Shown here: positions 6,970-9,881 of the stretch, one piece after another
How positions within the stretch are numbered: position 1 is the first letter of the stretch
Layout: every line of letters begins with the position of its first letter
Origin: a virus
Lineage: Duplodnaviria > Heunggongvirae > Uroviricota > Caudoviricetes
Reading direction: 5' to 3' (one strand)
Virus record (IMG/VR): IMGVR_UViG_3300020160_002689
Location: 1 to 20,133 of that record
Length of the DNA stretch: 20,133 bases
Position numbers and translations under genes: made by a program
Notes under the pieces: model-generated
What the model was told of the DNA's origin: nothing
Databases searched by the model: none
What the model saw: only the letters and a program-made list of their open reading frames with translations

Positions 6970-6973
6970 GTTG

Positions 6974-7054
6974 AGCTAGTGACAGGATTTGAACCTGCGA
7001 CGTTGGAGTTCCTACTTACAAGGTAGGTGCAATCGACCACTATGCGACACCAGC
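6974..7054 (-). tRNA. trnT: tRNA-Thr(TGT), extended variable region
   Basis: GCTGGTG/CACTAGC acceptor; CCTAC-CTTGTAA-GTAGG anticodon arm; 12-nt variable region; GCAGG-TTCAAAT-CCTGT T arm. Confidence 0.9.
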
Positions 7055-7062
7055 ATTTTATG

Positions 7063-7136
7063 AGCTTCTCATTGGATTCGAACCAATAACATCCACATTA
7101 CTAAAGTGGTACTCTGGCCAGTTGAGCTAGAGAAGC
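7063..7136 (-). tRNA. trnT: tRNA-Thr(AGT), A34
   Basis: GCTTCTC/GAGAAGC acceptor; CCACT-TTAGTAA-TGTGG anticodon arm (U31-U39 mismatch); standard T arm. Confidence 0.85.
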
Positions 7137-7145
7137 ATATTTTAG

Positions 7146-7233
7146 AGGTATAGGTAGGATTTGAACCTACGATGATGAAATTAATCATTACAGTTTTGCA
7201 GACTGCACCTTTCGACCACTCAGGCACTATACC
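7146..7233 (-). tRNA. trnC: tRNA-Cys(GCA), long variable arm
   Basis: GGTATAG/CTATACC acceptor, U73; GCAGT-CTGCAAA-ACTGT; 19-nt variable region. Confidence 0.9.
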
Positions 7234-7242
7234 ATTTTTCAG

Positions 7243-7315
7243 AGCTTCTGGACGGGCTCGAACCGACGACATCCTCATTACAAGTGAGGTGCTCTACCAA
7301 CTGAGCTACAGAAGC
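7243..7315 (-). tRNA. trnT: tRNA-Thr(TGT)
   Basis: Canonical cloverleaf; CCTCA-CTTGTAA-TGAGG. Confidence 0.95.
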
Positions 7316-7320
7316 ATTAG

Positions 7321-7391
7321 AGGTGCTGACTGAATTTGAATCAGTGTAGGAGGTTTTGCAGACCTCTGCCTAACCACTCGGCCACAGCACC
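7321..7391 (-). tRNA. trnC: tRNA-Cys(GCA)
   Basis: Canonical cloverleaf; GAGGT-CTGCAAA-ACCTC; U73. Confidence 0.95.
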
Positions 7392-7393
7392 AT

Positions 7394-7972
7394 TTATTTT
7401 ATTTCTAAAAGATTTTCATGTATTTCTCTATGACAATTTGCACATACTAAAATACACTTATCTAATTCATCTTTAATCTTATCCCAAGCTGTACACATAT
7501 TTTTTGATAGTGTAAAATCTTTTTTAGAGGGATCCAAATGGTGAAACTCTAATGCGGATACACACTTATTATATTCACATATAACACATTTACCACCTTT
7601 ATATTCTACTGCTTTTTCTTTTGTTCTTTTTCTAAATGTTTTTGTTCTTATATAGTTAGACTTTCTTCTATCATCATCACTATCAAATGTAAACTTTTTA
7701 TTCTCACCATATTTGGTAACGGTACTTCTACCTACACCAAATTCCTTCATTGTTTCCTCTATAGAATTTAGTTTATAAAATTCTTTCAATTTTTCAATTT
7801 CATCTTTATCTAACTTTTTACCAGAATTAAGACCTATATCATTTAACATTTCACTCTTACAAAAGTAAGAAATTAAACTTCTAGAACAATTTAATTCTTT
7901 TTGTATTTCTCTATAGCTTTTACCTTGTTTTCTTAGTAAAATTATATTTTCTTTTTTAGAACCTTCAACCAT
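7394..7972 (-). mobile_element. HNH homing endonuclease with N-terminal HTH, inserted in tRNA array A
   Basis: HTH (GKSYREIQKELNCSRSLISY); CxxC...LEFHHLDP...CANCHREIH; own TTAATATATA motif at 7990-7999. Confidence 0.9.
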
Positions 7973-8019
7973 AACATATCTTTTTATGATATATATTAAT
8001 TTTTTGGTTCTACCTTTTG

Positions 8020-8092
8020 TTGGTACTGTGGGTTACGATCCCACTACCTTTCGCGTATCAGGCGAATGCTCTACCGAGTGAGCTAAGTACCA
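8020..8092 (-). tRNA. trnI: tRNA-Ile(GAT)
   Basis: TGGTACT/AGTACCA acceptor; TTCGC-CTGATAC-GCGAA; atypical T-loop ATCGTAA. Confidence 0.9.
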
Positions 8093-8100
8093 ATATATTG

Positions 8101-8174
8101 TGATTCCTGTAGGATTCGAACCTACGACCTCTTGCATGTTAAACAAGCGCTCTTACCAGCTGAGCTAAGGAATC
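8101..8174 (-). tRNA. trnV: tRNA-Val(AAC), A34
   Basis: Canonical cloverleaf; CTTGT-TTAACAT-GCAAG. Confidence 0.9.
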
Positions 8175-8179
8175 TCTTG

Positions 8180-8262
8180 TAGGTCTACTCGGACTCGAAC
8201 CGAGATTATACTTCACGTCTCTTCCATGTAAAAGAAGGATGTTGCCATTACACCATAGACCT
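8180..8262 (-). tRNA. trnV: tRNA-Val(TAC), extended variable region
   Basis: AGGTCTA/TAGACCT acceptor; CTTCT-TTTACAT-GGAAG; 16-nt variable region. Confidence 0.88.
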
Positions 8263-8268
8263 ATTTAG

Positions 8269-8349
8269 TTGGCACAGAGGGATTTGAACCCACATTTTCA
8301 ACAACCATTTACAGTTCTCCAACTTATCAGGTTGGGCTGGTATGTGCCA
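8269..8349 (-). tRNA. Arm-rearranged tRNA-like RNA with Ile(GAT) anticodon arm
   Basis: Perfect 7-bp acceptor TGGCACA/TGTGCCA and a T arm; anticodon arm CCAAC-CTGATAA-GTTGG only 7 nt after the acceptor; D-loop-like TAAATGG lies 3' of it. Confidence 0.75.
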
Positions 8350-8354
8350 ATATG

Positions 8355-8441
8355 CTACTGGGGTGGGATTCGAACCCACGGTGGAGCTGTGCTCATCAGA
8401 TTAACAGTCTGAACCGTTCGGCCAACTACGGCAACCCAGTA
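8355..8441 (-). tRNA. trnN: tRNA-Asn(GTT), long variable arm (Tyr-like scaffold)
   Basis: TACTGGG/CCCAGTA acceptor, G73; TCAGA-CTGTTAA-TCTGA; variable hairpin GAGC-ACA-GCTC. Confidence 0.88.
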
Positions 8442-8447
8442 ATTTTG

Positions 8448-8518
8448 CTCTCCCACCAGGACTCGAACCTGGAATAACTGATTAACAGTCAGACGTGATA
8501 CCATTTCACCACAGGAGA
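8448..8518 (-). tRNA. trnN: tRNA-Asn(GTT)
   Basis: Canonical cloverleaf; loop CTGTTAA; G73. Confidence 0.93.
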
Positions 8519-8527
8519 ATATTTATA

Positions 8528-8563
8528 TAAAAGAAAAGACCCAAACTTTATGTTCGGGTCTTT
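8528..8563 (-). terminator. Intrinsic terminator between leader A and tRNA array A (candidate attenuator)
   Basis: AAAGACCCGAAC-ATAAA-GTTTGGGTCTTT-TCTTTT, ending about 10 nt before the first tRNA. Confidence 0.88.
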
Positions 8564-8587
8564 AGAAATTGTTTATAATATATGAGT

Positions 8588-8677
8588 TTATACTATACAT
8601 AACTGCTTACCCGATGTTGTGTTATTCACACAATTCGTAATCGTAATCACATTAATATTTATAGTAGTTGTTTTCAT
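8588..8677 (-). CDS. Leader peptide A, 29 aa (MKTTTININVITITNCVNNTTSGKQLCIV)
   Basis: Hand-translated; 22 of 29 residues are T/I/N/V/C, the amino-acid set of the downstream array. Confidence 0.85.
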   Translation of the reverse strand: MKTTTININVITITNCVNNTTSGKQLCIV

Positions 8678-8682
8678 TGTTT

Positions 8683-8752
8683 TATATATTAAATTTTTAT
8701 TGTCCCTTTTTGGTTTTTTTGTTTTTCTTTGATTATTTATAGTACAAAAGTA
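8683..8752 (-). promoter_or_regulatory. Tandem promoters for array A: TACTTTTG (8745-8752) and TTAATATATA (8683-8692)
   Basis: Same block as 192-250 and 9822-9881. Confidence 0.7.
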
Positions 8753-8772
8753 ATATAAAGTTTTTAATCTAC

Positions 8773-8997
8773 CTAATCTTTTATTATTTTTTTTAATTTA
8801 TTTTCTCTTTCTTCTCTAAGAGTAACATCTTCAGCTATTTCTTTATTGAATATAAGATATGTTGATCCACAACTATCACAATACCACCCATCAGTGTTCC
8901 AAGGTAAATCCTCAGGTGAATATTCAATTTCATCCTTCTTACAATGTAAACAAGGTTTCACTTCATATATCTTATCTTCAACTTTAATTAGTTTCAT
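8773..8997 (-). CDS. Small zinc-ribbon protein
   Basis: CLHC and CDSC pairs; C-terminal RENKLKKII motif. Confidence 0.75.
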   Translation of the reverse strand: MKLIKVEDKIYEVKPCLHCKKDEIEYSPEDLPWNTDGWYCDSCGSTYLIFNKEIAEDVTLREERENKLKKIIKD

Positions 8998-9010
8998 ATC
9001 TTAGTTTTTG

Positions 9011-9091
9011 TACAGGTAGTCGGACTCGAACCGACACTCTTTTCAGAACACGGTCCTAAGCCGTGCGCGTATACCATTTCGCCATACCTGC
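9011..9091 (-). tRNA. trnL: tRNA-Leu(TAG)
   Basis: CACGG-CTTAGGA-CCGTG; class II variable arm; A73. Confidence 0.95.
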
Positions 9092-9102
9092 ATATTTTTT
9101 TG

Positions 9103-9185
9103 TACCGAGAGCGGGACTCGAACCCGCACATCCTTTCAGATAATAGCCTCTTAAACTACCGTGTCTACCATTCCACCACCTCGGC
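9103..9185 (-). tRNA. trnL: tRNA-Leu(AAG), A34
   Basis: Leu scaffold GCCGAGG...TCTCGGT-A; GTAGT-TTAAGAG-GCTAT; a shifted register giving TAA does not pair. Confidence 0.85.
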
Positions 9186-9195
9186 AGGTGATTAG

Positions 9196-9276
9196 TACCC
9201 CAGATAGGATTCGAACCTATATTTTCAGTTTCCAATTACCCGTAGTTGTTTAGAAGACAACTGGGACTACTGAGGC
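9196..9276 (-). tRNA. Arm-rearranged tRNA-like RNA with Arg(TCT) anticodon arm
   Basis: GCCTCAG/CTGGGGT acceptor; GTTGT-CTTCTAA-ACAAC 8 nt after the acceptor; D-loop-like TAATTGG 3' of it; ATAGG-TTCGAAT-CCTAT. Confidence 0.75.
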
Positions 9277-9284
9277 ATATTTTG

Positions 9285-9369
9285 TATCGGGAGAGGGACT
9301 CGAACCCTCACGGACATTACTGTCCACAGATTTTTAAGACCTGCGTGTCTACCATTCCACCACCCCGAC
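9285..9369 (-). tRNA. trnL: tRNA-Leu(TAA)
   Basis: CAGGT-CTTAAAA-ATCTG; class II variable arm GGAC-AGTAAT-GTCC. Confidence 0.95.
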
Positions 9370-9372
9370 AGA

Positions 9373-9459
9373 TGGTACCGAGAGCGGGACTTGAACCCGC
9401 ACGCCACAAGGGCACAAGATTTTAAGTCTTGCATGTACTACCAATTTCATCACCTCGGC
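9373..9459 (-). tRNA. trnL: tRNA-Leu(TAA), with encoded CCA
   Basis: CAAGA-CTTAAAA-TCTTG; 3' end TCTCGGT-A-CCA. Confidence 0.95.
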
Positions 9460-9466
9460 ATTATTT

Positions 9467-9570
9467 AATTAATAGTAGGACTCGAACCTACACTAAGTTT
9501 ATTTCATCCTTAGCCATATCCTCTATATCTCTGTATAAAGTTAGGTGTTTACCAGTTCCACCATATCAAT
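9467..9570 (-). ncRNA. 104-nt tRNA-like element with no canonical anticodon arm
   Basis: ATTGATA/TATTAAT acceptor, Leu-type D arm GTG-GAACTGGTAAA-CAC, T arm GTAGG-TTCGAGT-CCTAC; 52-nt non-canonical middle. Confidence 0.6.
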
Positions 9571-9572
9571 TG

Positions 9573-9644
9573 TGACCCCACAGGGATTCGAACCCCGATT
9601 GAAAGCTTAGAAGGCTTTAGTCCTATCCATTGAACGACAGGGCC
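9573..9644 (-). tRNA. trnR: tRNA-Arg(TCT)
   Basis: Canonical cloverleaf; AAAGC-CTTCTAA-GCTTT. Confidence 0.95.
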
Positions 9645-9653
9645 AATTTAAAA

Positions 9654-9687
9654 CAAAAAACCCAAAACTTTTTGAGTCTTGGGTTTT
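9654..9687 (-). terminator. Intrinsic terminator between leader B and tRNA array B (candidate attenuator)
   Basis: AAAACCCAAGACT-CAAAA-AGTTTTGGG-TTTTTTG, ending about 10 nt before the first tRNA. Confidence 0.88.
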
Positions 9688-9714
9688 GTTATTTGTTATA
9701 ATACTTTTAATTGA

Positions 9715-9816
9715 TTACCAACTAAAATCATTTCCAAATTGAGCAAAACCCATCCCTTGTCTTAAAGATAAGACAGTCAGTGTTAAGTTTCTTCTATTTA
9801 GAATTGTTGTGTTCAT
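9715..9816 (-). CDS. Leader peptide B, 33 aa (MNTTILNRRNLTLTVLSLRQGMGFAQFGNDFSW)
   Basis: Hand-translated; 5 Leu and 3 Arg (all AGA) codons within codons 6-19, matching the Arg(TCT)/Leu array. Confidence 0.82.
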   Translation of the reverse strand: MNTTILNRRNLTLTVLSLRQGMGFAQFGNDFSW

Positions 9817-9821
9817 AATTG

Positions 9822-9881
9822 TATATATTAAAGTTTTATTCTCTCTTTTTGTTTATTTGTTATTTTTATAGTACAAAAGTA
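9822..9881 (-). promoter_or_regulatory. Tandem promoters for array B: TACTTTTG (9874-9881) and TTAATATATA (9822-9831)
   Basis: Same block as 192-250 and 8683-8752. Confidence 0.7.

Follow-up and report, generated by a model that had tools for sequence, protein, structure and literature searches.

An 81 nt segment on the minus strand of the virus record IMGVR_UViG_3300020160_002689 (positions 9196–9276) is, judged from its own sequence and those of its relatives, a real and conserved tRNA gene with a rearranged core. The DNA analysed here, referred to as the window, is the first 20 kb (20 133 bp) of this 84 kb IMG/VR record, which has a completeness of about 40% and a G+C content of 27–28%. 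DNA of the window recurs in metagenomes of freshwater, wastewater and activated sludge. It is probable that the gene specifies a functional phage tRNA-Arg(UCU), a chargeable decoder of AGA with a permuted core. As the helices of the element covary in a widespread family (70 members in 55 records), decay is excluded.

Structure of the rearranged tRNA-Arg(UCU) gene

The initial annotation had parsed 9196–9276 as an arm-rearranged tRNA-Arg(TCT) of 81 nt, with CCC/GGG closing around the anticodon arm and an 18 nt segment before the T arm. The minus strand reads exactly as parsed, and both of these details were confirmed, as was the claim that an Ile element in the window follows the same 81 nt plan. 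The parts of the Arg element and its sister are listed below, where R1 is a covariance model built from 11 Arg members of the family, A1 is a MAFFT alignment of Arg and Ile members together and A4 is a model-fitted alignment.

9196–9276, minus strand: whole rearranged tRNA-Arg(UCU) gene, 81 nt, with its 5′ end at 9276 and discriminator A at 9196; 96.8 bits with R1 and 39.5 bits with the Rfam tRNA model
9270–9276, minus strand: acceptor stem 5′ strand GCCUCAG, pairing with 9197–9203; 7/7 pairs (six Watson–Crick and one G-U), with compensatory changes at all seven across the family
9268–9269, minus strand: U8-A9 connector; invariant columns in A1, one gap (L049:10164) in A4
9263–9265, minus strand: helix X strand CCC, in place of one D-stem strand; pairs with 9239–9241
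9245–9261, minus strand: anticodon arm with a 5 bp stem and the loop CUUCUAA, from the Rfam alignment; anticodon UCU at 9252–9254, U33 and A37 present, all five stem pairs covary
9239–9241, minus strand: helix Y strand GGG, which pairs with X; the linker UAC separates it from the 3′ side of the anticodon arm
9221–9238, minus strand: relocated D-loop-like segment and variable-region-like linker, UAAUUGGAAACUGAAAAU, 18 nt; motif kept across the family, with proposed equivalents of A14, A15, G18, G19, A20 and U48
9204–9220, minus strand: T arm, stem AUAGG/CCUAU and loop UUCGAAU; the loop-adjacent pair is G:C in all 31 scorable family sequences
9197–9203, minus strand: acceptor stem 3′ strand CUGGGGU, from the sequence and family covariation
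8269–8349, minus strand: sister element, rearranged tRNA-Ile(GAU), 81 nt; closing helix CAG/CUG, U after GG, discriminator A; aligned by Rfam like the Arg element

GU lies between the U8-A9 connector and CCC, and a single A separates CCC from the anticodon stem. The D-loop-like UAAUUGGA segment comes after the 3 bp CCC/GGG helix. In both window elements the closing helix is followed by G-UAAWUGG-NNNN-UGAAAAU and then by the T stem. CCA is not encoded in the Arg gene, where the 3′ flank is CUA. An alternative 5 bp helix (CAGUU with AACUG in the segment after GG) was dropped, as it is not conserved in the other members checked by eye.

The Rfam tRNA model RF00005 aligns with 9196–9276 end to end, scoring 39.5 bits against a gathering score of 29 (E = 2.4e-5 for the window). 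Apart from exceeding that threshold, the element has the closing 7 bp acceptor stem with an unpaired discriminator, the anticodon arm and the T arm with G53:C61 of a canonical cloverleaf. In the alignment, the D arm shrinks from the expected 13 nt to 3 nt, while the variable region gains an insertion of 21 nt. The D hairpin (stem 10–13:22–25) has no counterpart between position 9 and the anticodon arm; the partner of the strand found there sits 3′ of the anticodon arm. The core tertiary bases U8, A14, R15:Y48 and G18-G19 are all present and conserved, but in the relocated segment. No call was made by ARAGORN at 9196–9276.

In a normal tRNA the core runs in the order D-stem 5′ strand, D loop, D-stem 3′ strand, base 26, anticodon arm and variable loop. 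The proposed order here is one D strand, one linker base, the anticodon arm, a linker of 3–4 nt, the other D strand, the D loop and the variable loop. Since the D strands flank the anticodon arm, X:Y and the anticodon stem would form one extended hairpin, reproducing the stack of D stem and anticodon stem found in the long arm of the L shape. In its new place, the D loop could still reach the T loop via G18-G19, and U8 and base 48 via A14 and R15. The three new joins link positions that are neighbours in the canonical fold, where 9 is near 22–23, 44–45 are near 10 and 21 is near 46–48. We infer the three-dimensional fold.

Canonical bacterial and phage tRNA-Arg(UCU) (RF00005; the Escherichia coli argU type and the virus's own copy at 9572–9644) has the same 7 bp acceptor stem, U8-A9 and 5 bp anticodon stem with a 7 nt loop (U33, UCU, A37). 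The 5 bp T stem with UUCGAAU, GG followed by A20, an A15:U48-type pair, discriminator A and the location in a phage tRNA array are also shared. However, the D hairpin that normally separates acceptor and anticodon arm is absent from the rearranged gene. Instead, the D-stem strands flank the anticodon arm and form a helix of 3 rather than 4 bp, the D loop lies 3′ of the anticodon arm by the variable region, and the length is 81 nt rather than 73–77 nt.

Three other kinds of unusual tRNA resemble it in part. D-armless mitochondrial tRNAs also lack the D hairpin and have a three-way junction of acceptor, anticodon and T arms with a lengthened helix under the anticodon stem, but they are shortened and flexible, without the elbow between G18-G19 and the T loop. 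In contrast, members of the phage family are longer than normal (81 nt in the window), keep the full D-loop motif and a Levitt-type pair, and come from phages of bacteria. Permuted and split tRNA genes (permuted in Cyanidioschyzon merolae, split in archaea) also have tRNA parts in non-standard gene order. There, the break falls between the 5′ and 3′ halves, and processing or joining yields a mature tRNA with the ordinary cloverleaf. Here, the acceptor 3′ strand and T arm do not lie upstream of the acceptor 5′ strand; the acceptor strands close the element in normal order, and the permutation is internal and presumably kept in the mature RNA. Allo-tRNAs likewise have non-canonical shapes, were found by genome and metagenome mining and include some from phages, but have 8/4 or 9/3 acceptor/T stems and cloverleaf order,(PMC5389517) while the phage family keeps 7/5 and alters the order of the core parts. 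Full-text literature searches found no published description of the rearranged architecture, and Rfam has no separate family for it.

A family with covarying helices and class-matched bases

Relatives were sought in IMG/VR with two anticodon-blind DNA patterns, both derived from the stretch that links the anticodon arm to the T loop, and then with a third, less strict one; R1 was run over the fetched loci. Counted with a simple grammar that places no constraint on the anticodon, the family has 70 distinct members in 55 viral records, 75–92 nt long, of which 29 encode CCA. Compensatory changes were found in every helix, including the 3 bp helix around the anticodon arm. This bears out the earlier proposal that conserved geometry combined with diverged stems points to a selected RNA family rather than to decay.

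When the 11 Arg members were aligned with MAFFT, 98.2% of the cells in paired columns were paired, 16/20 pairs had compensatory changes and 0/500 shuffles were as good. For the 33 distinct Arg and Ile members in A4, 98.0% were paired and the covariation score was 1.007, compared with 0.226 after shuffling; pairing fell to 36–45% when the partners were slid by 1–3 columns. As the anticodon arms in A1 were one column out of register, the Arg-only alignment A2 and A4 were used in its place. The outer X:Y pair is C:G in 32/33 sequences in A4, and the other two pairs take CG, GC, AU and UA forms. Among the 70 members the X and Y trinucleotides form 15 different paired combinations, some with G-U pairs. 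A 7 nt anticodon loop with U33 and R37 and the T loop UUCRAnn are kept across members, and U8-A9 is present in nearly all aligned sequences.

A search for further anticodons had been suggested, and several occur. The 70 members carry the Arg anticodons UCU (21), ACG (17), UCG (5) and CCU (3), the Ile anticodons GAU (14) and UAU (6), CAU (3) and a single UGU. Single base changes connect them into a network, suggesting that the anticodons shifted after a single origin.

Downstream of strand Y the segment reads U-A-R-Y-U-G-G-N, resembling A14, R15, Y16, Y17, G18, G19 and N20 of a D loop. After GG, 46/46 Arg members have A and 17/20 Ile members have U, often UU. A is the discriminator throughout the Ile (20/20) and CAU (3/3) members; Arg members use A, G or U. 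A20 is the main determinant for bacterial arginyl-tRNA synthetase (ArgRS), the bacterial Arg identity set comprises A20, C35, U36 or G36 and A, G or U at 73, and U20, U21 and A73 are among the bacterial Ile determinants.(PMC9976931) The class-matched bases after GG and the discriminators fit these identity sets, and the Arg element in the window, with A after GG, the anticodon UCU and discriminator A, has the whole sequence set for Arg. Position 3 of UAR and the base that precedes the T stem form A:U in 59 cases, G:C in two and A:A in one, and three further G:C cases were noted; G:U and A:C were never seen. This is how an R15:Y48 Levitt pair would behave, and it supports the proposed fold. Thus, the base after GG, its match to the identity sets and the Levitt-type covariation support homology of the relocated segment to the D loop. 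The sole UGU (Thr) member (L302:3840–3919, minus strand) has an Arg-type body, but with U after GG and A:A at the proposed 15:48, and may be a recent anticodon shift or a dying copy.

When the Arg element was used as a BLAST query, copies about 77–80% identical were found in the PA11 group of Pseudomonas aeruginosa phages and one was found in a 635 kb uncultured phage record. A UCG member has a candidate match in Limnohabitans phage DC31. The rearranged tRNA has no RNA-gene annotation in the cultured-phage records whose annotation was inspected. PA11 and HHBS10_2 differ by two compensatory pairs in the T stem, and in the acceptor and anticodon stems G-U in one is replaced by G-C in the other, the pattern expected in sequences under selection for structure. 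ARAGORN calls no tRNA in the complete genome of PA11, where R1 matches a single gene, a rearranged Arg-UCU with an encoded CCA. AGA and AGG account for 45% of the Arg codons in the long open reading frames (ORFs) of PA11, and are rare in its G+C-rich host. In a 13.7 kb stretch (L324), the 27 tRNAs called by ARAGORN cover 19 amino acids and only Arg is missing; a 91 nt rearranged ACG member lies at 7680–7770. Two similar arrays (L246 and L293) also contain no canonical Arg tRNA within the fetched stretch.

Outside phages, a pattern scan of contigs from bacterial genomes returned, among the matches listed, only canonical tRNA-Ser, in which the variable arm fits the pattern, and chance non-tRNA sequence, with no rearranged member, which is not evidence of absence. 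Likewise, R1 had no match at E ≤ 1e-6 in 151 Bacteroidota genomes, a result that is not evidence of absence, with about 31 candidates scored per genome.

Variants of 89–91 nt have an extra hairpin just before the T stem, where class II tRNAs have the variable arm. An extra helix was seen in longer members of 85–92 nt: L078:660–751 (GGAC/GUCC), L083:847–931 (CCUU/AAGG), L087:77–164, minus strand (GUGU/ACAC) and L319:5228–5318, minus strand (GGC/GCC). Strand Y and the D-loop-like segment lie inside this helix, so that X:Y pairing would create a pseudoknot. The extra helix resembles a variable arm whose loop supplies a D strand and the D loop, and this may hint at the origin of the rearrangement.

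Function and alternative explanations

If the element is a working tRNA-Arg, the gene would be transcribed together with the rest of the minus-strand array and both ends of the RNA would be trimmed like those of the neighbouring tRNAs. Because CCA is not encoded, we propose that it would be added by a CCA-adding enzyme. Charging by the host ArgRS would use A20, C35, U36 and A73, and the product would decode AGA, which accounts for 695/768 Arg codons (90%) in the genome represented by the window. Neither an ArgRS nor an isoleucyl-tRNA synthetase (IleRS) of phage origin was found in the 84 kb record (about 40% of the genome), and the annotation of PA11 includes neither; host enzymes would therefore have to charge the rearranged tRNA.

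The element would then belong to a set of natural tRNAs with a permuted core order in which, as far as covariation tells, the contacts of the L shape are kept. Cloverleaf order would be dispensable for translation in bacteria, and the family would offer a natural system in which to examine the reading of tRNA shape by ArgRS, IleRS, RNase P, EF-Tu and the ribosome, and a possible source of scaffolds for orthogonal tRNAs. ARAGORN, a routine tRNA finder, misses 71 of the 77 family occurrences and mis-models the rest. Consequently, inventories of phage tRNAs and arguments from codon usage may be inaccurate, and some phages, PA11 among them, may wrongly count as 'tRNA-free'.

Several observations weigh against a decoding role. 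The same array has a canonical tRNA-Arg(UCU) at a distance of 300 nt, leaving the rearranged element without an obvious need here. Helix X:Y is only 3 bp, and in 21/70 members just two of the three pairs form at the best position. Folded as a single sequence the Arg element is unexceptional (z-score −1.9) and the minimum free energy fold lacks the T arm, which makes folding of this kind uninformative. The restriction to Arg and Ile anticodons may be partly an ascertainment effect, as the search patterns were derived from Arg and Ile members. In RNA-labelled libraries, only 6–7% of the words of the 2.8 kb array region occur in matching runs. A 96 nt query retrieved short contigs (151–254 nt) from three RNA-labelled runs of three studies, with the element at 0–1 mismatch and flanks unlike those in the window. 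As these contigs are compatible with DNA carry-over and give no transcription, ends or strand, they speak for conservation of the element and not for its expression.

The canonical partner also favours a different explanation, namely that the element is a conserved tRNA mimic with no part in decoding, for example a decoy that ties up a tRNA-cutting nuclease of host defence or some other factor that binds tRNA, with translation left to the canonical tRNA. A canonical tRNA-Ile(GAU) likewise accompanies the rearranged Ile element, and a canonical partner with the same anticodon was found within the fetched stretch for 12/77 family occurrences. Defences that cut tRNA are well documented; Septu, for example, is reported to cut the variable loop of tRNA-Tyr.(PMC13096335) However, in PA11-type phages the rearranged copy is the only one, and the L324, L246 and L293 arrays provide no canonical Arg tRNA in the stretch fetched. 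Moreover, the class-specific synthetase determinants outside the anticodon (A20 versus U20, and A73) are kept, which a decoy for an anticodon nuclease would not need. We regard a mimic of this kind as unlikely.

A structured RNA that reuses tRNA parts in some other role, such as a processing or regulatory element of the array, a homing-endonuclease target or a primer, is less likely again. Homing-endonuclease-like genes are nearby (a helix-turn-helix protein gene at 7394–7972 in the array and, in PA11, an overlapping HNH endonuclease gene), and the array of the window includes a 104 nt tRNA-like element with no recognisable anticodon arm. Against this, the anticodon loop is canonical and the anticodons are a connected set of sense anticodons with matching identity bases, which a non-decoding element has no reason to keep. 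A decaying pseudogene or chance tRNA-like string left by array turnover, to which the missing ARAGORN call, the low Rfam score (39.5 bits) for a tRNA and the mosaic array, where neighbouring tRNAs differ from those of a 92%-identical relative, might point, is hardly credible and is already contradicted by covariation in all helices of the 70 homologues, by the 100% identity of the element in that relative despite replacement of the canonical Arg and Leu genes beside it, and by the near-identical copies with unrelated flanks in contigs of three further studies.

Returning to the functional tRNA-Arg(UCU), the rewired core might be a stealth body plan that keeps the L shape and charging by host ArgRS or IleRS but evades nucleases recognising the canonical D-arm/variable-loop side, whether host immune nucleases or the phage's own host-shutoff nuclease. 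We put this forward very tentatively, as a doubtful extension. If it were true, decoding of AGA, CGN and AUH would be kept alive while ordinary tRNAs are destroyed.

The surrounding tRNA arrays

Two tRNA arrays occupy 6973–9644 on the minus strand of the window, where ARAGORN predicts 16 tRNAs. Rfam adds three weak full-length matches, at 9196–9276 (39.5 bits), 9467–9570 (35.9 bits) and 8269–8349 (34.5 bits). The whole 84 kb record contains at least 37 tRNAs. The array with the rearranged Arg element, array B, comprises the following.

9010–9644, minus strand: array B, in the order Arg, 104 nt tRNA-like element, Leu, Leu, rearranged Arg, Leu, Leu, with spacers of 1–10 nt, from ARAGORN and Rfam
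9572–9644, minus strand: canonical tRNA-Arg(UCU), with the same anticodon as the rearranged element; called by ARAGORN, 53.2 bits with Rfam
9657–9831, minus strand: upstream signals of array B, namely a TTAATATATA motif at 9822–9831, a 33-codon ORF with three AGA codons at 9715–9816 and a terminator-like hairpin at 9657–9687

The spacing of the rearranged Arg element within array B is like that of the neighbouring tRNAs called by ARAGORN. The initial annotation had linked its anticodon to the AGA codons of the leader ORF. The ORF at 9715–9816 does contain three AGA codons, but the match is uninformative because AGA makes up 90% of Arg codons and the same array holds a canonical tRNA-Arg(UCU). 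A common layout precedes both arrays (8528–8760 and 9657–9831, minus strand): first the TTAATATATA motif, next a short ORF in which codons for the tRNAs that follow are abundant, and finally a strong terminator-like hairpin immediately upstream of the leading tRNA.

When the array was compared with GenBank phages by near-identity BLAST, only a 58–60 nt tRNA-Thr match to T4-like phages was returned. The rearranged Arg element is identical (100%) in a related 113 kb phage contig, where a flanking 747 amino acid gene is 92% identical in DNA. Comparison of 9010–9644 with L002:16587–18029 revealed turnover within the array. The rearranged Arg, the 104 nt element and one Leu-UAA gene are 99–100% identical, while BLAST returns nothing for canonical Arg-UCU and only 75–82% identity for three Leu genes.

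The 104 nt tRNA-like element (9467–9570, minus strand; Rfam tRNA 35.9 bits) has a good acceptor stem, D arm and T arm, and about 45 nt forming two predicted hairpins replace the 17 nt anticodon arm, with no obvious anticodon. It is 99% identical in the related contig L002.

A gene for a 192 amino acid protein (7394–7972, minus strand) lies inside the tRNA array and encodes N-terminal helix-turn-helix domains and a Cys/His-rich C-terminus. In PA11 (L094:1070–1522), a coding sequence annotated as an HNH endonuclease shares its last 27 nt with the rearranged tRNA. Together, these suggest homing-endonuclease-driven mobility of tRNA cassettes.

A long variable region in bacterial tRNAs is normally confined to Leu, Ser and Tyr. 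An extra 12–17 nt in the variable region, in some cases with a clear stem-loop, was seen in Thr-UGU (6973–7054, 82 nt), Cys-GCA (7145–7233, 89 nt), Val-UAC (8179–8262, 84 nt) and Asn-GUU (8354–8441, 88 nt), all on the minus strand. The Thr, Cys and Asn tRNAs of this type lie near a normal-length copy with the same anticodon, and Val-UAC is beside Val-AAC. In the rest of the 84 kb record, the same long variable region is found in His, Trp and Arg-ACG tRNAs. Three minus-strand tRNAs have A as the first anticodon base, which is unusual for bacteria-type tRNA sets: Thr-AGU (7062–7136), Val-AAC (8100–8174) and Leu-AAG (9102–9185).
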